Assembly (NCBI GenBank): GCA_964613525.1
Contig: CAZTIN010000002.1
Location: 1-32,844 of the forward strand
DNA length: 32,844 nt
Reading direction: 5' to 3'
Source of the DNA: an uncultured Candidatus Saccharibacteria bacterium
GTDB taxonomy: Bacteria; Patescibacteriota; Minisyncoccia; Phycocordibacterales; UBA9973
Positions 3,815 to 32,844 of the stretch are shown here, one piece after another. Made by a program: the position numbers and the translations under genes. A model generated the notes under the pieces. That model did not search any database, had not been told where the DNA came from, and worked only from the letters and a program-made list of their open reading frames with translations. Position 1 is the first letter of the stretch. The number at the start of each line of letters is the position of its first letter.

Positions 3815-4174
3815 ATGGATTTTTTACTTATTGTTGCTCGTGTTCTGTTTGGTGGATATTTTATAATGAATGGTTATAACCATATAGCCAAAGGTAAGCA
3901 TATGTCTGGTTGGGTTGCTAGTAAAAAAGTCCCTAATCCAAGCATGGCTATAATTGTGTCTGGACTAATGATACTTTTAGGAGGCCTAGGAATATTACTA
4001 GGAACTAATACTGAAATCTCAGTTATATTAATCATTGCTTTTCTTATACCAGTTACTTTCATGATGCATGATTTCTGGAAAGAAAAAGATCCAATAGCTA
4101 AAATGAATTCCTATGTAGGATTTACTAAAAACATAGCTTTGATTGGTGGAGCTCTAGCATTTTTATTTATATAG
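3815..4174 (+). CDS. DoxX family membrane protein
   Basis: 119 aa with multiple TM helices. The N-terminus ARVLFGGYFIMNGYNHI resembles DoxX. Confidence 0.7.
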   Translation: MDFLLIVARVLFGGYFIMNGYNHIAKGKHMSGWVASKKVPNPSMAIIVSGLMILLGGLGILLGTNTEISVILIIAFLIPVTFMMHDFWKEKDPIAKMNSYVGFTKNIALIGGALAFLFI

Positions 4175-16454: not shown

Positions 16455-18761
16455 ATGAAATTTAGGAAAATTTTTCTAACTTTAATAATTGCTTCTTTTG
16501 TTTATATTTTACCTAATTTTGCCAGTGCAGAGATTGTTTTACCTTGTTCACGCGGAACAGCACAAATGTGTGGCTTTAATGATGTTTTTACTCTAATCAA
16601 TAATTTGATAAAGTTTTTCCTCAGTTATGTACTACTACCTCTATCTATAATATTAGTAAGTTATGCTGGATGGCTATTTATGACATCTGGGGGCAATGAA
16701 AGTAAGCGCACTCAAGCTAAAGCCATATTTAAAAACTTGCTCATAGGTATAGCAATATTCCTTTTGGCTTGGTCTATAGTTTATTTTGTATTCAAGGCTT
16801 TTGGGGTAAAAGGTAGTAATGGTCTGTCTGATAAAACTGTCGACTGGAAAGTCGACGGTTCTTCTTTACCACAAATTAATACGGGTACTCAGAGCTCTGG
16901 CCAAAATAACAATAGCAGTAATAATTCCAGTAATCAGGTATTAACCAGCTATGCTGCTACTATTACTTACAATGCAGTAGTTCCTAGCAGTACTCGCGCT
17001 ACTGTAACAATAACTCCAAAAGCACCTTATGAAATGGCAATTCGTATGAAATGTATAGATAGGCTTAGTGGAGATACTGCTACTGGCGAAGCCAAGATAG
17101 CTTCGGGTAGTAGCGTGACAACTATTGTAATTGACCTACAAGAAGAGACAGAATATTCTTGCGCTCTTGAGAATATCGAAGGTCAAATTAAAATGAATGA
17201 TATAACAGATTCAGAAATAATGACCCCTAGGGTTTCTCCAGTAACGGGCGATTTTACTTTTTCTGGTGGTAGTTTCGACTCAGACGAAAATACTATAAAT
17301 ATTCGCTACCGTAATGCTGACAAGCTTTACTCTAGTTCTGGATTTCTTTCTTGTTTTGATTCTACTAATTCAAGAAATTTATTTAACATGTCTGGTATTT
17401 TACTAAATAGGGAAAAGGGTAGTGACTTGCGTTATGCTACATATAATCTACCTTCTAATTTTTCTAGTACTCTGGAAGATAATATTAATGTTAGTTGTAG
17501 TTTCTATACTTATACCCTGGTTAATAAAATAATAACTGAAACAGAAAATAAGTTTACAGGTACTATAAAATCAACTAAAAAAATCCAAAGTATTAAAACC
17601 AGATTCCTAGTAACAGAGAAGCAAATAGGTCAGGACAGCGTAACTATTATATTTAATGGGTCTATAAACATAAATCCTAATTTGTCTTTGGCTTGTTATT
17701 CGAATAATTCGAACCATGTTTTTAGAACACGCGCTACTTTTGACCCAACTACAAATTCCAGGCTTTCACAGGCAATGAATCCGTCTTTTAATAAAGATTC
17801 TATTTATGCACCAATTACGATACCGGTAGCATGGTTCGGCTATGGTCTTAGGCCAGGGTCAGTTTACTCTTGTAATTTAGAAGGAGAAACTCTTGAAAAA
17901 GTCTCTGGTTACGAAGATCAAGTAGTTACTAAACATAATCATTCGTTTAGTCTTAGTACTCCTTTAATTCCAGCACCTATTAAATTAGAATCAAAACTCG
18001 ATTACTATGTTTCCATTGGAGTACCAAGAATTGTTTATGTAAACTATCCATATGTAAAACCAGTAAATGTGCTATCAGGCGGGCCTTATTTATCAGAATC
18101 GCAGTTCAGGCAGCCTATACCAGATTCTATTTTTGTACCAGTTACAAATGGGCTTGTTGTAGATAATTCTCGTATGAACATGGTATGTACTTCTATTGTT
18201 GGTCCAGCAGCTGGGACAACCTATAGTACGCTAGTCTCAGTGTCTGAGACTCAGTCTGCTGATACTTTTGGAATTGCTCAGGTGTATGGAGCTAATAATA
18301 ATCTTGGCTCTGGATTCAGTATACCGATAGTCAGGACTCCGCGAGGTGGATTTATGCATTCGTCCGTATATGCTTGTATGCTGGGGTTTACAGTAGGCTC
18401 TGTGCCTCAGATTAGGTCATTTATGGCATCAGTCCCTATTAGTATCGATCCAACTGAAATTGGCCCTATAAACCTATCAGTCGAAAATATAAATGCTGAT
18501 AAAAGTTACGCAAACTTTACTATAGTTGCATCACCTCGTATCGAAAATAGTGTAAAATATACTTGTAGACATCCGTCTGGTAACTATACAGGCGAAGCAT
18601 ACTGGCCGCCGCAAGCTCTGGGTATAAGAATGCCTGTAGCCATTCCTGTTATGAGTAGCTTGCCAGGATTAAAGCCAGCCACAAATTATAGCTGCACATT
18701 AGAAGGTTCCACCTATCAGAAACAAATCGTAGAATATCAGTTTAATATACAAACACCTTAA
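16455..18761 (+). CDS. TrbC/VirB2-like pilin module (aa 1-118) fused to a large extracellular domain of Cys-pair modules
   Basis: Signal peptide (..NFASA/EI), a two-TM hairpin with loop SGGNESKRTQAK, an N/S-rich linker, then five modules each closed by a Cys pair. See findings. Confidence 0.6.
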   Translation: MKFRKIFLTLIIASFVYILPNFASAEIVLPCSRGTAQMCGFNDVFTLINNLIKFFLSYVLLPLSIILVSYAGWLFMTSGGNESKRTQAKAIFKNLLIGIAIFLLAWSIVYFVFKAFGVKGSNGLSDKTVDWKVDGSSLPQINTGTQSSGQNNNSSNNSSNQVLTSYAATITYNAVVPSSTRATVTITPKAPYEMAIRMKCIDRLSGDTATGEAKIASGSSVTTIVIDLQEETEYSCALENIEGQIKMNDITDSEIMTPRVSPVTGDFTFSGGSFDSDENTINIRYRNADKLYSSSGFLSCFDSTNSRNLFNMSGILLNREKGSDLRYATYNLPSNFSSTLEDNINVSCSFYTYTLVNKIITETENKFTGTIKSTKKIQSIKTRFLVTEKQIGQDSVTIIFNGSININPNLSLACYSNNSNHVFRTRATFDPTTNSRLSQAMNPSFNKDSIYAPITIPVAWFGYGLRPGSVYSCNLEGETLEKVSGYEDQVVTKHNHSFSLSTPLIPAPIKLESKLDYYVSIGVPRIVYVNYPYVKPVNVLSGGPYLSESQFRQPIPDSIFVPVTNGLVVDNSRMNMVCTSIVGPAAGTTYSTLVSVSETQSADTFGIAQVYGANNNLGSGFSIPIVRTPRGGFMHSSVYACMLGFTVGSVPQIRSFMASVPISIDPTEIGPINLSVENINADKSYANFTIVASPRIENSVKYTCRHPSGNYTGEAYWPPQALGIRMPVAIPVMSSLPGLKPATNYSCTLEGSTYQKQIVEYQFNIQTP
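16941..18758 (+). repeat. five divergent protein-level modules (about 85-135 aa), each with one Cys pair and three ending in a (P)xxxYSCxLEG-like motif
   Basis: Cys pairs at aa 200/236, 300/348, 414/473, 578/641 and 704/747. The recurring motifs are ETEYSCALEN, PGSVYSCNLEG and PATNYSCTLEG. The DNA itself is not repeated. Confidence 0.55.
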
Positions 18762-18762
18762 T

Positions 18763-19323
18763 ATGAAAAGATTTTACATGTACATATTGTTTGCATTGAT
18801 CTTACCTACATTAGGTTATGCTCAGTTTACTGGGTTTAATGATGAGACTGGACTAAGCGTGCCAATGTATTCAGTGGATAATACATTCATAGGTAATAAC
18901 GGTGATGTTATTTCAAACGATGCAAGCAAATATACTAATGATGCAAATATTACAACCAGTGCAGAAGTTAACATAAACGTTGCAGGAAGTAACAGAATTT
19001 GCAGTATAGGACGTAAGACATTCGCTTCATATGTTGACTATGTAGGCTGTATTGTGCGAGTTTCTATACTACCATTTATATTTACTCTTGCTCTCCTGGC
19101 ATTTATTTGGGGAGTAACAGTAATGATTAGGCATCCGGATAACCAGGAGTCTCAAAAAGAAGGAAGGATCTTTATACTGTGGGGGATTATTGGATTCTTC
19201 GTTATAACATCAGTTTATGCGCTAGTGGCAATAATTAGGAGAACAGTTGGTTTCGGGTCTAATTTTAAAGATGATGCCACACCTTATGTACAATTAAAAG
19301 AAAAAGTGCAAAAATTAAAATAG
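18763..19323 (+). CDS. TrbC/VirB2-like pilin-family protein with an N-terminal Asn-rich extension
   Basis: Signal peptide (..LGYA/QF), a Cys pair CSIGRKTFASYVDYVGC, and a two-TM hairpin with loop HPDNQESQKEGR, ending in IIRRTVGFG. Confidence 0.55.
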   Translation: MKRFYMYILFALILPTLGYAQFTGFNDETGLSVPMYSVDNTFIGNNGDVISNDASKYTNDANITTSAEVNINVAGSNRICSIGRKTFASYVDYVGCIVRVSILPFIFTLALLAFIWGVTVMIRHPDNQESQKEGRIFILWGIIGFFVITSVYALVAIIRRTVGFGSNFKDDATPYVQLKEKVQKLK

Positions 19324-19324
19324 T

Positions 19325-19711
19325 ATGAAGAAAATAATTTTAAGTATGATCCTGGCATTCTCAGTTATACTGCCTACCTCTGTAGCTTTGGCTGACGACA
19401 ATGCTTTTGAATTAAATGTAGGCATAGAGAATCCTCTTGGTAGCGGTAAAGACAATATAAAGGACATAATAGCTTCTATAATGAAAGTCATAGTAGACAT
19501 TGCTATACCAATAGTTGTGGTAATGGTAATATATTCAGGATTCCTGCTTGTTATGGCTCAGGGTAACCCTGATAAATTAAAAGAAGCCAAAAAGACTATT
19601 ACCTGGACTCTGGTTGGGGCAACCATACTACTAGGCGCCCAGCTTATATCAACAGTACTTGTTGAAACAGTCTCGAATGTTTCAAAAGACGCAGTCTCGT
19701 CTACTAAATAA
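19325..19711 (+). CDS. TrbC/VirB2-like pilin-family protein
   Basis: Signal peptide (..SVALA/DD), an amphipathic helix, TM helix, loop AQGNPDKLKEAKK, then a second TM helix. Confidence 0.6.
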   Translation: MKKIILSMILAFSVILPTSVALADDNAFELNVGIENPLGSGKDNIKDIIASIMKVIVDIAIPIVVVMVIYSGFLLVMAQGNPDKLKEAKKTITWTLVGATILLGAQLISTVLVETVSNVSKDAVSSTK

Positions 19712-19724
19712 GTTATTCACAACA

Positions 19725-19753
19725 GGGCCCAATTACATGCAGTAATTGGGCCC
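19725..19753 (+). other. GC-rich 12-bp hairpin without a U-tract inside the pilin cluster
   Basis: GGGCCCAATTAC (19725-19736) pairs perfectly with GTAATTGGGCCC (19742-19753) around a 5-nt loop. It is followed by AATGTG rather than a T-run. Confidence 0.6.
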
Positions 19754-19757
19754 AATG

Positions 19758-19766
19758 TGTTATAAT
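19758..19766 (+). promoter_or_regulatory. extended -10 promoter TGtTATAAT
   Basis: TGT plus TATAAT (19761-19766). The gap to ATG 19802 is 35 nt. Confidence 0.55.
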
Positions 19767-19801
19767 ATATACATATTAGTATAAATTAATTGTTAATTAT
19801 T

Positions 19802-20200
19802 ATGCGTAAATTTATTGCTCCGGCTCTTGGTTTCTTTTTACCTGTTTTGGCAATGGCACAAAATATAAACGTTGGACCAGCTTATACTGGTAACCAAAAT
19901 GTGTTCACACTGCTTGCTACAGGTCAGAGTCTAATGAACCTATTAATCCGTGTTCTTGTGGGTTTTGCGGTTCTTATGATTATCGTAGGTGTTGTTCAGT
20001 TTATAATAGCTGGTTCAAAAGGTGATTCTGCTGCTTCAGGTAAAGCTAAAAGTACAATACTATACGGTGTATTAGGTCTTTTCGTTATTACAACTATCTG
20101 GGGACTTGTAGGTATCGTGCGTCGTACACTTGGTACTGGTACACCTGGTTCATCTGATGTTGTACTTCCTTGTGTTCCTGGTCAAGACCAGAACTGTTAG
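19802..20200 (+). CDS. TrbC/VirB2-like pilin-family protein (start at ATG 19802, MRKF...)
   Basis: Signal peptide (..VLAMA/QN), a two-TM hairpin with loop AGSKGDSAASGKAK, the motif IVRRTLGTG, and a C-terminal Cys pair CVPGQDQNC. Confidence 0.6.
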   Translation: MRKFIAPALGFFLPVLAMAQNINVGPAYTGNQNVFTLLATGQSLMNLLIRVLVGFAVLMIIVGVVQFIIAGSKGDSAASGKAKSTILYGVLGLFVITTIWGLVGIVRRTLGTGTPGSSDVVLPCVPGQDQNC

Positions 20201-21389: not shown

Positions 21390-22886
21390 TTACTGTATTT
21401 CTTTAACTATAGCTTCTAGTGTATCACCAGTCGCTAGTGTAATCTTGGTTTCTATTTGGGCGCCACATTCGTCACCCTCGAATACTTCTTTAGTTTTACT
21501 TTTGTTATGCTGGAGTTCAGTAACCTTACCAATAGCAATTTCATTATCACGTCTTAGTACGCGCACCGTAGAGCCTAATTTAATAGAACCCGATTGTACT
21601 TTACCACCAATGACTTGTTTTTCTTTTGTTTGATTGAATAGCTTTAGGATTTTTAGTGAGCCTACTTCTACTTGAACTTCTTTACGAGGACGTCTTTTTT
21701 CTAGTTCTTCTTCTAGCCATTCGGTTAGTTTGTAAATAATATCAAAAGTCATTACAGTTACTGACATTTGGTCGCGAACATCTTCTGCTTTGCGGTCAAT
21801 GTTGACATGGAACCCAACTATAATAGTATCTTTGTCAGCTGTGGCCATTTTAATATCGTTTTCGGATACATTACCTACGGCTGATTTCACAACATGAAAA
21901 CCATTCTCTTCGTTATTTAGCTTAGCAACTTCTTTTTCTATAGCTTCTATTGAACCTACAGTATCAGCTTTTATCATCAGTGGAATAGAGAATTCGCTTG
22001 TTTTTTCAGATATTCTGTTTTTAATTTCTTTTGATTGTTTATTAGCAGCAACTGCTTTTTCAGCTTCTTTCTTTGTATCAAATACTTCAAAATATGAACC
22101 CACCGGAGGAACAGTGTCAAAACCAACTACATTGATAGGGGACGAACAGTAGCTTTCTGTAATAGTCTTACCCATGAAATTTTCCATTATACGGGTTGAT
22201 ACCATAGACTCGCCAGCTACAATAAAAGAGCCTTTTTTAAGCGTACCTTCTTTTAGTATTAGTGTTGCTGTAATGCCACGCTTGGTATCAAGATGTGATT
22301 CAAGCACGATACCTTCAGCTCTTTTAGATAGGTCAGCGCGCATATCATTGAACTCAGCCACGAACAATATTAGGTCTAGTAGATTGTTTATTCCTTCTCC
22401 TGTTACAGCTGAAATCGCCACATGTGGAATATCTCCACCCATGCCTTCCAGGTATATACCGTGCTCTAATAGGGTATTCTTTGTCCTATCGACATTTGCT
22501 CCGGGTTTGTCTATTTTGTTTATAGCTACTATGTAGGGTATACCTGATTCTTTTATAGCTTCTAATGCTTCTAGTGTTTGAGCTTTTACTCCATCTTCTG
22601 CAGACACTACTAATATTGCTATATCGGCAGCACTAGCCCCGCGTACACGCATAGACGTAAAAGCCGCATGTCCTGGAGTATCCAGGAATGTTATTTTCTT
22701 TAGGTCTCCATTTTCTGTTTCGTGGAGTACTTCGTATGCTGCAATGTGTTGAGTAATACCACCAGATTCTCCAGCAACTACGTTTGATTTTCTTATGTAG
22801 TCTAAAAGTGTTGATTTACCATGGTCCACATGTCCCATAACAGAAACAACCGGTGGACGTGCAATTATTTTCGTCTTTTCTCCCAT
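21390..22886 (-). CDS. infB: translation initiation factor IF-2, short form lacking the long N-terminal region
   Basis: The G domain starts at aa 10 (RPPVVSVMGHVDHGKSTLLD, DTPGH, NKID). The IF-2 domains II, C1 and C2 follow. Confidence 0.95.
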   Translation of the reverse strand: MGEKTKIIARPPVVSVMGHVDHGKSTLLDYIRKSNVVAGESGGITQHIAAYEVLHETENGDLKKITFLDTPGHAAFTSMRVRGASAADIAILVVSAEDGVKAQTLEALEAIKESGIPYIVAINKIDKPGANVDRTKNTLLEHGIYLEGMGGDIPHVAISAVTGEGINNLLDLILFVAEFNDMRADLSKRAEGIVLESHLDTKRGITATLILKEGTLKKGSFIVAGESMVSTRIMENFMGKTITESYCSSPINVVGFDTVPPVGSYFEVFDTKKEAEKAVAANKQSKEIKNRISEKTSEFSIPLMIKADTVGSIEAIEKEVAKLNNEENGFHVVKSAVGNVSENDIKMATADKDTIIVGFHVNIDRKAEDVRDQMSVTVMTFDIIYKLTEWLEEELEKRRPRKEVQVEVGSLKILKLFNQTKEKQVIGGKVQSGSIKLGSTVRVLRRDNEIAIGKVTELQHNKSKTKEVFEGDECGAQIETKITLATGDTLEAIVKEIQ

Positions 22887-29521: not shown

Positions 29522-30439
29522 TTAACCCAAAAGAAAATCCAAGGCTAAATCATCAGCTTCTTTTTGGGATTTGTTTTTATTGCTCATATCAAGCCATGTA
29601 ATATTCTTATTTTTCTTAAACCAGGTTAGCTGACGCTTGGCATAATCAAGAGTTTCTTTGTTTATGGAATTAGTACATTCTTCGTTATTTATTTTACCTT
29701 GCGCTAGTAATGCTAGATATTTATATTCCAAGCCTAATTTTTCCAGCTTACTATAACTAACACCAGAATCTTTTATCTTCATTATCTCTTTTAGCATAAT
29801 TTGAAGACCTCTTTTATTTGTCCTGTCTTTGATGTGTTCTTTGATTGTTTCATTAGGTAGCTTTAGCCCAATAAATAGTGTTTCATATTTTAATTTTGGT
29901 TCTACTAATTTTGGCACTGTACCTAACGCTGCTATTATCTCTAGCGCTCTTATTAGCCTGACTTTATTATGTCTATCTATGTTTTGAGCACGTTCTTTGT
30001 CTAAATTCTCTAGTTTTGTAAAAAGCTCATTAGCTGAGTATTTCTCTAATTCTTTGCGCAATTTTGCATTTGGTTTTACTTCTGGAATTGTTTTACTAAA
30101 AACTAAATTATCTATATATAAACCTGTACCACCACATATGATAGGTATTATGTTTTTACTATGCAGATCTTTTATTATTTTAGTCGCTTCTTTTTTGTAC
30201 CGAGCTACAGAATAATTAGTTTTATAATTTACAACTGAAATCATGTGGTGTTTAATACCCTGCATTTCCTTTTTTGTTATCTTAGCGCTAATTGTGTCTC
30301 CATCTATATAAACTTGTCTTGAGTCAGCTGAAATTATTTCGGATTTTATTCCGTTTTGCTTTAGATAGATAGACAAAGCTACCGACAGGTCACTTTTGCC
30401 GGTAGCTGTTTGTCCGCAAATAACAATGCATTTGTTCAT
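29522..30439 (-). CDS. miaA: tRNA dimethylallyltransferase
   Basis: P-loop ICGQTATGKS and the IPPT family core (GGTGLYI...). The ATG abuts the murA stop codon with no spacer. Confidence 0.92.
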   Translation of the reverse strand: MNKCIVICGQTATGKSDLSVALSIYLKQNGIKSEIISADSRQVYIDGDTISAKITKKEMQGIKHHMISVVNYKTNYSVARYKKEATKIIKDLHSKNIIPIICGGTGLYIDNLVFSKTIPEVKPNAKLRKELEKYSANELFTKLENLDKERAQNIDRHNKVRLIRALEIIAALGTVPKLVEPKLKYETLFIGLKLPNETIKEHIKDRTNKRGLQIMLKEIMKIKDSGVSYSKLEKLGLEYKYLALLAQGKINNEECTNSINKETLDYAKRQLTWFKKNKNITWLDMSNKNKSQKEADDLALDFLLG

Positions 30440-31966
30440 TTAGCCTACACTTTTGATTTGTCTTACATCAGCTCCTAGGTCGCTAAGTCTTTCTATTAGA
30501 CCTTCGTACCCACGGTTAATAGCATAGACATTACGCAGTATTGATTTACCTTCGGCTGCTAGCATGGCAATAAGTATAATAGTTGCTGGGCGCAGTGCTG
30601 GTGGGCAGACTATCTGCGCTCCACGTAAATCTGTTCCTCCGTCTACGTATACACGGTGTGGGTCGGCAAGCATTACTTTTGCTCCTAGGCGGTTTAGTTC
30701 TGTAAAATATATTGCTCGGTTTTCCCATGTCCAGTCGTGTACTAGTGTGGTACCGTCCGCTACAGCAGCTATCGGCACAAAGAAAGGCAAGTTGTCATTA
30801 TTTATACCAGGGAATGGTAATGCATGTATTTTATCAGGTAGAGCTTTAAGCTTACTTTCTTTAATTGTTATATCAACTAGTTCAACATGACCATTTTTAC
30901 CTTTGTATGATTTACTAACAGTAAATTTTAATCCCATTTTTTCTAGTTTTAGTAGTTCAAGTCTTAGAAATTCAATAGGGCATCGTTTAATAGTAATATT
31001 ACTATTTGTTACGATTCCAGCAGCTAGGAAAAACATTGTTTCTATCGGGTCTTCACTGTTGTACCATTCTAGCTCTTCGTCTATTTCTTCTATACCACTA
31101 ACTTCTAGGGTAGTCGAACCGATCCCATTTATCTTTACACCTAGTCTTTCTAAGAAGAAGCACACATCTTGTACTTGGTAGTTAGGCGGAGCAAAACGAA
31201 TTATGGTTTTGCCAGGAGTCAGAGCCGCAGTCATTAACGCGTTTACTGCTGCCATATCGGACGCTTCGTATAGTACTATGTCGGCAGGTTTTATATTAGT
31301 ATTTTTAACTAGGTAATGCTTTGCTTCTGATTTTATTTTTATTCCAAATTTTTCCAGTGCAAACCTATGAGCTGAAATAGTTCTTTCACCCATTTTACAC
31401 CCACCTGGGTTAGGTAGGCGGAATTCTTTTATTCTATGTGCTAGTGGTGGAATCAAATACAAATTAACACGAATTCTACCAGCAATCGCTTCGTCTATAT
31501 TATCTATATCAAATTCATCCGGAGGAGTTATTTTAAGACTATGTTCTTCTACCCAATTAGTTTTGATACCAATACTTTCAAAAACTTCTATAAAACGAAA
31601 AACTTCTTCTATTCTTGGGACGCCATGAATAGTAGTTGCTGATTTATTTAAAAGTGATGCCGCCATCAGAGCCAAAGCTCCATTTTTAGAATAATGAGTT
31701 GTTACTTCGCCGGATAATTTCTTGCCGCCGACTATTTCAAAATCGTCAACTCTTGGAGCAAGAGTAATAAGCCTCTCGCCAAGAGTGTCGCCAATTCTTT
31801 CTAATTCTTTAGTGGTAAAATTTTGGTTACCTTTTTCCATTCTGGCTACTGCTGACTGAGATGTATCCAGCATTTTGGCAAAAGATGACTGGGTTAGGCC
31901 TTCACGTTCGCGGATAGTGCGTATAAGATAGCCTATATAATTTTGTAATGACTTTTTCTTTCCCAT
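30440..31966 (-). CDS. murA: UDP-N-acetylglucosamine 1-carboxyvinyltransferase with an N-terminal XRE-type HTH domain (fusion)
   Basis: aa 8-70 (IGYLIRTIREREGLTQSSFAKMLDTSQSAVARMEKGNQNFTTKELERIGDTLG) is a classic HTH_3 pattern. From about aa 73 the MurA pattern begins: FEIVGGKKLSGEVT..YSKNGALALMAASLL and the catalytic Cys loop PGGCKMGERTISAH. Confidence 0.88.
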   Translation of the reverse strand: MGKKKSLQNYIGYLIRTIREREGLTQSSFAKMLDTSQSAVARMEKGNQNFTTKELERIGDTLGERLITLAPRVDDFEIVGGKKLSGEVTTHYSKNGALALMAASLLNKSATTIHGVPRIEEVFRFIEVFESIGIKTNWVEEHSLKITPPDEFDIDNIDEAIAGRIRVNLYLIPPLAHRIKEFRLPNPGGCKMGERTISAHRFALEKFGIKIKSEAKHYLVKNTNIKPADIVLYEASDMAAVNALMTAALTPGKTIIRFAPPNYQVQDVCFFLERLGVKINGIGSTTLEVSGIEEIDEELEWYNSEDPIETMFFLAAGIVTNSNITIKRCPIEFLRLELLKLEKMGLKFTVSKSYKGKNGHVELVDITIKESKLKALPDKIHALPFPGINNDNLPFFVPIAAVADGTTLVHDWTWENRAIYFTELNRLGAKVMLADPHRVYVDGGTDLRGAQIVCPPALRPATIILIAMLAAEGKSILRNVYAINRGYEGLIERLSDLGADVRQIKSVG

Positions 31967-31972
31967 GGTAAC

Positions 31973-31994
31973 AATATATCATATATGATATATT
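31973..31994. promoter_or_regulatory. perfect 22-bp palindrome AATATATCATATATGATATATT, equal to two divergent TGaTATATT extended -10 elements and a candidate operator
   Basis: The plus strand has TGATATATT at 31986-31994, then a 6-nt gap and ATG 32001 (murB). The minus strand has TGATATATT at 31981-31973, then a 6-nt gap and ATG 31966 (murA). Confidence 0.6.
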
Positions 31995-32000
31995 ATGTAT

Positions 32001-32844
32001 ATGGATTTACACAGTATGGTGATAAACTTAAAGAGCCTGAATACGTTCGGTATTGAAGCCCGGGCGCGTGTTTTTGTGATTAAAAACACGGCTAATTTAG
32101 TAGATTATATGTCTAGTAATTCTAATAATAACTATTTTGTTTTAGGTGGCGGGTCTAATATTATCCTAGATGAAAGTATTAAAGAGAGGGATATTCTAAA
32201 GATAGAAATAAAAGGTAAAGATATAGTTGAAAAAGATGACAGTAGTGCATTTGTGCGTATAGGAGCAGGGGAAAATTGGGATGATGTAGTAGCCTGGAGT
32301 ATAGACCAGGGTCTATCTGGAATAGAAGCATTATCTGCTATACCAGGTAGTGCTGGTGCTACTCCAGTGCAAAATGTAGGAGCCTATGGAACAGAAATAA
32401 AAGACGTTCTTGTTTCGGTAACTGTATTCGATACAAAAGAAAATAAAATTAAAACAATTTATAATAAAGACTGTGAATTTACCTATAGGAATAGTTTATT
32501 CAAGTCTAAAGAAAAAGGACGATATATCATAACTGATATTTTATTAAAACTATCAATGGGTTCCGCTACTATGCCAGACTACCCAGCGGTAAGAAAATAT
32601 TTTGCAGATATAGGTATTACTAGTCCGACAGCTTTGGAAATACGTAACGCTATAACTGAAATTAGGTGGTCTAAATTACCTCATCCGGAAGAGTTAGGTA
32701 ACTGCGGTTCATTCTTTGAAAACCCAATAGTTCCAAACGAAGTTGCAAATAAAATAAAAGAACAATTTCCTGAAATAACTTTGTATAAAATAGACGACAA
32801 TCATTCTAAAATCCCAGCAGGGTTCCTTCTGGAGAAGGCGGGAC
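32001..32844 (+). CDS. murB: UDP-N-acetylenolpyruvoylglucosamine reductase, 3' partial (runs off the window)
   Basis: Hand translation gives MDLHSMVINLKSLNTFGIEA...VLGGGSNIIL...AIPGSAGATPVQNVGAYG...CGSFFENP...KIPAGFLLEKAG. Alternative in-frame starts lie at 31995 and 32016. Confidence 0.85.
   Translation, partial: MDLHSMVINLKSLNTFGIEARARVFVIKNTANLVDYMSSNSNNNYFVLGGGSNIILDESIKERDILKIEIKGKDIVEKDDSSAFVRIGAGENWDDVVAWSIDQGLSGIEALSAIPGSAGATPVQNVGAYGTEIKDVLVSVTVFDTKENKIKTIYNKDCEFTYRNSLFKSKEKGRYIITDILLKLSMGSATMPDYPAVRKYFADIGITSPTALEIRNAITEIRWSKLPHPEELGNCGSFFENPIVPNEVANKIKEQFPEITLYKIDDNHSKIPAGFLLEKAG

Follow-up and report, generated by a model that had tools for sequence, protein, structure and literature searches.

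Why should an enzyme of peptidoglycan synthesis carry a DNA-binding domain, and which DNA would such a domain read? Both questions are raised by a gene on a contig from an uncultured Candidatus Saccharibacteria bacterium (GenBank assembly GCA_964613525.1, contig CAZTIN010000002.1), of which we analyzed the stretch of 32,844 nucleotides that is referred to below as the window. The gene encodes a UDP-GlcNAc enolpyruvyl transferase (MurA) that is preceded, in the same chain, by an XRE-type helix-turn-helix (HTH) domain, and it lies head-to-head with a divergent murB (ATG at 32001), as an earlier note on this DNA had read from the letters. That note had also proposed autoregulation of a murA-miaA/murB divergon. 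We arrived at the same proposal from a comparison of many loci: a palindrome found in 76 of 78 of them overlies both putative -10 boxes of the divergon, and its half-sites appear to track helix 3 of the HTH domain. We consider it likely that HTH-MurA is a trigger enzyme, being both a MurA and the autorepressor of the murA(-miaA)/murB divergon. The features that this reading involves first are the following.

30440-31966, minus strand: coding sequence of the HTH-MurA fusion, 508 amino acids (aa), ATG start (list of open reading frames, ORFs; Pfam HTH_3 and EPSP_synthase; mean predicted local distance difference test score, pLDDT, of 89.2 in the AlphaFold2, AF2, model)
31772-31948, minus strand: XRE-type HTH domain, residues 7-65 (Pfam; AF2 secondary structure; solved relatives are repressors)
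31829-31864, minus strand: recognition helix and next turn, TSQSAVARMEKG, residues 35-46 (conservation in 116 sequences; covariation with the operator)
31748-31780, minus strand: inter-domain linker, residues 63-73 (AF2 confidence; family consensus LGxxIxSLxxSxDF)
30455-31747, minus strand: MurA domain, residues 74-504, with the codon of Cys190 at 31397-31399 (alignment to PDB sequences; Foldseek; residues)
31975-31992, no strand assigned: candidate 18-bp palindromic operator TATATCATATATGATATA (conserved upstream of the fused gene)

The two-domain architecture noted earlier, an N-terminal XRE HTH fused to MurA, was recovered by profile searches. The Pfam model HTH_3 (PF01381) matches residues 15-65 (E 5.7e-9, 36.3 bits against a cutoff of 23), the HTH_31 and Xre-like-HTH models also match, and a complete MurA domain follows from residue 74: EPSP_synthase (PF00275) is matched at residues 80-494 (E 3.4e-45), with profile positions 3-417 of 417 covered. 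The NCBIfam MurA subfamily model NF006873 scores 316.8, over its cutoff of 297. The equivalog score for TIGR01072 (304.7) lies under its cutoff of 392.7, which places the enzyme, as far as profiles can tell, in a divergent MurA clade; the cutoff of NF009470 is likewise not reached. Against solved MurAs the MurA part shows about 30% identity (5ujs scoring best, at E 7e-57), the PGGC loops being aligned, and Foldseek comparison of the AF2 model with MurA crystal structures gave TM-scores of 0.85-0.93. The model, a monomer without DNA built on 116 homologues, places the HTH helices at residues 7-21, 26-32, 37-45 and 52-62, and in the linker residues 68-71 fall below a pLDDT of 50 and form no regular secondary structure.

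The enzyme part had been described as intact, with the Lys of SKNGA and the catalytic Cys in place. Both are there, the Cys loop reading PGGCKMGERTISAH, and so are the equivalents of the other canonical residues: Lys22, Asn23, Arg91, Cys115 (the Cys of PGGC), Arg120, Asp305, Arg371 and Arg397 all have counterparts in the window protein that are invariant among the 116 aligned sequences (E. coli numbering, with an E. coli sequence placed in the alignment). With these residues intact, the window protein is probably a catalytically competent MurA. One position sets the clade apart: the equivalent of Asp369 is Ala in 116 of 116 sequences, within an invariant CPPALRP (window 30590-30610, residues 454-460), where E. 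coli MurA reads TDLRA.

Is the junction real? In a collection of 5.8 billion proteins, the 120 best homologues (59-100% identity, about 500-515 aa) all combine PF00275 with PF01381, and their source names are Nomurabacteria, Zambryskibacteria, Magasanikbacteria, Parcubacteria and Patescibacteria. A scan with one genome per species found relatives in at least 583 genomes, from which the best 80 loci were studied, with upstream DNA extracted for 78. These 80 loci align from query residues 1-23, HTH included, save one with a frameshifted gene (L077). Among the 120 homologues and the 80 species-representative loci, the carriers belong to Paceibacteria/Parcubacteria and allies; this is the taxonomic spread of the domain pair that the earlier note had proposed to establish by a domain-architecture search. 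In an exhaustive search, about 114 clusters (at 50% identity) match residues 1-120 at E<=1e-10, and most of those listed cross the HTH-MurA junction. Because the fusion is conserved in the 120 best homologues and the 80 loci, misassembly and an internal start codon are ruled out and the junction is genuine. The HTH is conserved in orthologues as well. At an overall identity of about 60%, its recognition-helix consensus TSQSAVARME.G.QN is nearly invariant: among the 116 sequences T35, Q37, R42, E44 and G46 do not vary, and S36, S38, A39 and A41 are at least 90% conserved.

A search with residues 1-75 only (word index) returned two proteins, P0121 and P0122, and nothing on standalone relatives. 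P0122 is a truncated fragment. At the locus of P0121 (L081, 2594-4037) two ORFs overlapping by 14 nt take the place of the fused gene, one of 82 aa for the HTH and one of 402 aa for MurA, with murB again divergent; the split is a frameshift or sequencing error. The fusion architecture itself is not new, since such proteins are already deposited under ordinary MurA names (OGI77419.1/UniRef100_A0A1F6WMN8 and OHA88819.1 carry plain MurA annotation). Full-text literature searches found no paper on an HTH-MurA fusion, in line with the earlier remark that no functional work on one was known.

The perfect palindrome that had been seen 7 nt from the gene is 20 nt long (ATATATCATATATGATATAT, 31974-31993, 7 nt off the murA ATG). 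Across the family, TATATCAYATRTGATATA occurs upstream of the fused gene with at most two mismatches in the 76 loci mentioned above and exactly in 52, mostly 8-13 nt from the ATG. In a position matrix all 18 operator positions are near-fixed and the flanks are variable. There is one copy per locus, and within the window the palindrome is the sole exact match to the 18-nt core (0.15 chance matches expected at up to three mismatches). No second operator copy was found in the 32.8 kb, where the three-mismatch matches are the self-overlap and one site inside the murB coding sequence (TATATCATAACTGATATT, 32523-32540, plus strand) that is probably due to chance. Several loci have insertions of 100-170 nt between operator and murA ATG (L049, about 3862-3997; L074, about 1674-1783; L017; L063), and two of these bear terminal inverted repeats, CCCGTTAGAGAT...ATCTCTAACGGG, and have the look of a miniature inverted-repeat transposable element.

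An RNA element was considered for the same region and rejected. Rfam gave no match in 31700-32300 at E<=1, and the predicted fold (-12.5 kcal/mol, z = -1.96) is only marginally better than that of shuffled sequences. A near-invariant palindrome of this kind is, to judge by its conservation, better suited to recognition by a protein than to a hairpin, and if transcription is leaderless, as discussed below, the palindrome would not be transcribed.

If the fused HTH reads this palindrome, changes in the site might be expected beside changes in the helix. Where half-sites have changed, the change is often symmetric and goes with substitutions in helix 3. TATAACA half-sites occur with all three TAQS proteins and with no others, on both sides in two of them (TATAACA..TGTTATA). 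A GAGATA half accompanies seven of seven TSQSS[IV]PRME proteins and five of 69 others, and two are TATCTCA..TGAGATA; the single TTQST protein has TATAGCA..TGCTATA. L051 (about 1290-1358), alone among the loci whose upstream sequence is intact, has no palindrome. Its helix is rewritten to TSVSVVNKME and another inverted repeat, TGTTAAGGAAT..ATTCTTAACA, is found upstream; a switch of specificity may have occurred here. Taken as evidence, the covariation between helix and site suggests that the HTH domain reads the operator.

The same site was found at another class of genes. Metagenome contigs were scanned for the exact motif, and among the 120 stretches listed 45 are closely followed, in the correct orientation, by a gene for an HTH of this subtype: about 28 of these genes encode HTH-MurA fusions and about 17 encode small XRE proteins of about 100 aa. 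Of these small proteins, 13 are the second gene of a Gp49/HigB-like toxin and XRE antitoxin pair. The modules (L168, 2043-2725; L170, L171, L190, L193, L107, L108, L134 and L181) consist of a Gp49/HigB-like gene (about 125 aa, PF05973) followed by the XRE HTH protein, and their promoter reads TTGACA, 4 nt, then the palindrome TATATCAYATATGATATA, identical to the murA operator. The antitoxin helix is TKQS[ND]IARMETGQQNFT, to be compared with TSQSAVARMEKGNQNFT in HTH-MurA. These HigA-like modules resemble HTH-MurA in the HTH subtype and in the identical 18-bp palindrome at the promoter, and differ from it in that the antitoxin is a standalone protein with a toxin partner and no enzyme domain, in a toxin-antitoxin operon rather than among cell-wall genes. 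XRE antitoxins of such pairs are classically autorepressors. The likeness hints that the HTH of MurA derives from an antitoxin-type repressor, and cross-talk between antitoxin and HTH-MurA is possible where one genome holds both. The other 75 listed stretches have no HTH nearby and were not taken as a regulon. They are plausible chance matches, at an estimated rate of about 1e-9 matches per base of AT-rich DNA and an assumed collection size of about 1e12 bases.

Distant members of the family show what is retained when the enzyme decays. Eight fused clusters (P0130, P0133, P0141, P0161, P0185, P0189, P0199 and P0236) have lost the GGC loop and several catalytic Arg and Lys residues, and keep the helix TSQSA[VI]ARIE.G.QNL or a close variant. 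The MurA-like domain remains full-length, and several of these Cys-less members keep the equivalents of K22/N23 and D305. P0141 (L202, 95-6201) has the operator CATATCATATATGATATA at its gene start; 8 nt left of this operator begins a divergent gene, and after it come a Mur ligase and, separately encoded, a MurA of 438 aa that has PGGC (there are two Mur-ligase genes at this locus). In P0189 and P0133 the motif stands at the gene or operon start. The loci of P0130, P0189 and P0133 are L204-L206, and at L206 the operator heads an operon of NUDIX, nucleotidyltransferase and HTH-MurA-like genes. In another distant member, P0173, the catalytic residues are intact and a variant AT-rich palindrome, CATCTCATATGTGAGATA, lies ahead of the gene (L203, 4973-5001, on an 876-kb contig whose locus has 70% GC), so that fusion and site reach beyond the low-GC Paceibacteria. 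Since HTH and operator are kept where catalytic residues are lost, the series argues that the HTH-operator pair outlasts catalysis and that the family has been selected for regulation. Retention of the MurA domain in Cys-less members would be compatible with a sensor role.

How, then, would the operator act on the two genes? The layout of the divergon in the window adds the following features.

31973-31981, minus strand: putative extended -10 of the murA promoter, TG-A-TATATT, with the murA ATG 6 nt after (promoter scan)
31986-31994, plus strand: mirror-image TG-A-TATATT, putative extended -10 for murB, with the murB ATG (32001) 6 nt after (read from the sequence)
32001-32844, plus strand: 5' part of murB, running off the window, with an alternative in-frame ATG at 31995 (Pfam FAD_binding_4 and MurB_C)
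29522-30439, minus strand: miaA, tRNA isopentenyltransferase (Pfam IPPT, E 4.8e-56)

The murA stop directly abuts the miaA start (TAA-ATG), so that miaA is probably co-transcribed with murA, and miaA is found immediately downstream of the fused gene in about 20 loci. Of 75 loci, 61 have a divergent upstream gene, and murB is the divergent neighbour in about 45 of 78. At divergent loci the commonest distance between the partner ATG and the left end of the palindrome is exactly 8 nt, which gives a symmetric layout of the form ATG-8-palindrome-8-ATG (in the window: murB ATG 32001, palindrome 31975-31992, murA ATG 31966). The murB-murA intergenic region measures 34 nt and is almost wholly filled by the operator. 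Each half of the palindrome reads TG-A-TATA(xT), that is, an extended -10 box. On the murA strand the promoter scan found TATACA-17-TATATT preceded by TG and ending at 31973, and in 45 of 62 loci 6-8 nt separate the ATG from the end of the hexamer that, on the right side of the palindrome, most resembles a -10 box. No Shine-Dalgarno-like sequence was found ahead of any window gene, and a TATAAT-like or TGnTATAAT box lies 6-9 nt before the ATG at many window ORFs (for example at 1108, 2833, 23364 and 27554). From these spacings we infer that the murA and murB mRNAs are leaderless, which may be the rule in this genome. A full-text literature search found no paper on leaderless translation in Patescibacteria.

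The mechanism we propose would run as follows. Two copies of HTH-MurA would bind the half-sites TATATCA and TGATATA, about one helical turn apart; the operator would enclose the extended -10 box of each of the two divergently oriented, leaderless promoters, and one bound dimer would therefore block RNA polymerase at murA(-miaA) and at murB together. The resulting negative feedback would set the level of the first two committed enzymes of peptidoglycan synthesis. Repression is proposed rather than activation because the operator overlaps the putative -10 and the transcription start, and binding as a dimer would suit the two half-sites. No second murA was found within 4 kb on either side of the fused gene in the 80 loci, nor in the window.

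Several points weigh against this reading. Canonical MurA is a monomer, and dimerisation is assumed here. The linker is predicted to be flexible and would offer no clear route from the state of the enzyme to the HTH. The halves of the palindrome resemble ordinary extended -10 boxes, and part of their conservation may come from promoter function. The covariation is suggestive rather than decisive because the events are few, three to four independent ones at most, and probably clade-level; five loci combine the standard helix with one GAGATA half-site, and the antitoxin helix has K at position 36 and nonetheless stands beside the standard operator. Finally, the finding that the fused gene is the sole murA covers the flanks of each locus, as given above, and the window.

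Does the enzyme domain take part in the switch? We put at somewhat under an even chance the general idea that DNA binding responds to a ligand of the MurA domain or to the conformation of that domain, for example through the closed "dormant" complex with UDP-MurNAc and a Cys adduct of phosphoenolpyruvate (PEP), or through UDP-GlcNAc. The specific form of this idea is more tentative still: a metabolite-gated repressor for which the MurA catalytic cycle is the signal, so that the dormant UDP-MurNAc/PEP-Cys form binds the operator or the UDP-GlcNAc-bound form leaves it. The best-surviving alternative to such gating, itself rather doubtful in our view, is that HTH-MurA binds its operator constitutively as a plain autorepressor, its own concentration governing repression with no readout of UDP-sugar or PEP, and the MurA domain being simply the enzyme whose dose is set and perhaps a dimerisation surface. 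It competes with ligand gating only and leaves DNA binding as proposed. Negative autoregulation alone explains an operator over the gene's own promoter, the flexible predicted linker offers no obvious allosteric path, and the antitoxin relatives use the same operator without a small-molecule sensor. The Cys-less members speak the other way: they retain a full-length MurA-like domain, which is expected of a sensor and hard to explain for mere cargo. The known enzyme-repressor fusions BirA, PutA, NadR and BzdR are, in addition, ligand- or state-gated.

A second alternative concerns the site rather than the protein. The palindrome could be only two back-to-back extended -10 elements of leaderless murA and murB, the HTH doing something else. 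Each half, TGATATAxT, is indeed an extended -10 lying 6-8 nt from its ATG, in a window where many genes have a TATAAT-like box before the ATG and none a Shine-Dalgarno-like sequence. We nevertheless regard this explanation as improbable. Conservation of the left half-site is just as high in the 26 loci where no divergent gene begins close by; at several of these a terminator or a co-directional gene comes directly upstream. The central CAYATRTG, invariant across loci, lies outside any -10 box. Putative promoters number in the dozens, yet each locus has a single copy of the motif, as does the 32.8-kb window. Its symmetric double changes track the helix sequence, and the same motif stands before unrelated operons with the same HTH subtype and in a genome of 70% GC.

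Two further alternatives we hold to be very unlikely. The HTH might be a protein-protein module that tethers MurA to the cell-wall machinery, as in RodZ, in which the HTH binds MreB and is joined to a transmembrane segment and a periplasmic domain. There is precedent in that RodZ, like HTH-MurA, is involved in cell-wall synthesis and carries an N-terminal HTH of XRE fold, and the fusion partner here is a cell-wall enzyme. The window protein is unlike RodZ, however, in having no match at E<=0.01 to HTH_25 (the Pfam model for the RodZ HTH), with HTH_3, HTH_31 and Xre-like-HTH matching instead, in having MurA as its C-terminal part in place of the transmembrane segment and periplasmic C-terminus, and in having a conserved DNA site. 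The solved sequences closest to its HTH are all DNA-binding repressors or antitoxins (SaPIbov1 Stl, controller proteins of restriction-modification systems, PezA, HipB and HigA), and a tether would leave co-occurrence and covariation with a DNA palindrome without explanation. That a separately encoded regulator, such as a Gp49/XRE antitoxin, binds the palindrome and the fused HTH is a relic would fit the small XRE proteins whose very similar helix goes with the identical palindrome elsewhere, but neither the window nor any one of the 80 loci contains a Gp49/XRE module, and the fused HTH is under strong purifying selection, covaries with the site and is kept even where catalysis is lost.

Known systems offer partial parallels to the proposed trigger enzyme. 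Functionally HTH-MurA would stand, by analogy, with BirA, PutA and NadR, and its architecture parallels that of BzdR. BirA of E. coli, the biotin protein ligase and bio repressor, is the textbook trigger enzyme, and its palindromic bioO overlaps two divergent promoters of the same pathway. Like HTH-MurA it joins an N-terminal HTH and a biosynthetic enzyme in one chain and has a palindromic operator over divergent promoters. It differs in its winged HTH and other enzyme fold, and in that its own gene is neither adjacent nor regulated; its co-repressor (biotinoyl-AMP) and ligand-driven dimerisation are established, whereas ligand and dimer are proposals for HTH-MurA. PutA, the flavoenzyme and repressor of proline utilisation, autoregulates its own gene and the divergent putP through shared intergenic sites. 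It resembles HTH-MurA as an enzyme acting on its own gene and a divergent partner, and differs in its ribbon-helix-helix domain, in redox-dependent membrane association as the switch, and in its catabolic pathway.

BzdR of Azoarcus shares with HTH-MurA an N-terminal XRE HTH, a linker and a C-terminal domain of enzyme fold, which in BzdR is the sensor, and in this it is similar to the HTH-MurA-like members without the Cys. The window HTH is matched weakly by the corresponding model of NCBIfam, NF006015 (E 1.1e-5, under cutoff). The shikimate-kinase-like domain of BzdR is non-catalytic and has a different fold, whereas the window protein keeps its catalytic residues. Compared with these four regulators, HTH-MurA has another enzyme, would act on its own gene through a single site common to the next pathway gene, and has a symmetric, putatively leaderless design. 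Canonical MurAs (E. coli, E. cloacae, and MurAA/MurAB of Gram-positives) share the fold, the Cys loop and the substrate-binding Lys, Arg and Asp residues. The matched solved chains, about 410-460 aa long, align only to query residues 69-505, and none has a DNA-binding domain. Known control of MurA is post-translational, by UDP-MurNAc feedback and, in Firmicutes, by ClpCP/ReoM proteolysis. What we put forward as new are the proposed operator, the divergon design, the apparent sharing of the operator with toxin-antitoxin antitoxins, and the candidate pseudoenzyme branch.

If the proposal is true, cell-wall regulation would have a new layer, in which an enzyme of the committed step of peptidoglycan synthesis itself represses murA and murB in a sequence-specific way. 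The proposal would further provide a rare well-defined regulatory circuit in the Patescibacteria (Candidate Phyla Radiation, CPR), largely uncultivated bacteria in which, to our knowledge, few regulatory circuits have been characterised. The system is compact, with one protein and one 18-bp site, and has relatives in hundreds of species. Its natural series from active enzyme-repressors to Cys-less pseudoenzyme-regulators would illustrate the evolution of a sensor domain out of an enzyme, and the family could yield biosensors responsive to UDP-sugars or fosfomycin. Were metabolite gating also true, it would amount to transcriptional end-product feedback on exactly murA and murB, the makers of UDP-MurNAc, and covalent modification of the Cys, of the fosfomycin type, would de-repress the pathway. 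Since the operator would be read by Gp49/XRE antitoxins as well, a genome with both modules could have its cell-wall synthesis cross-wired with toxin-antitoxin state.

Two observations elsewhere in the window are recorded here. Four ORFs with domains like those of type IV secretion system (T4SS) pilins (PF18895) are clustered at 16455-20200; clusters of such T4SS-pilin-like genes are a known feature of Patescibacteria genomes. Translation initiation factor IF-2, encoded at 21390-22886, is unusually short, at 498 aa.

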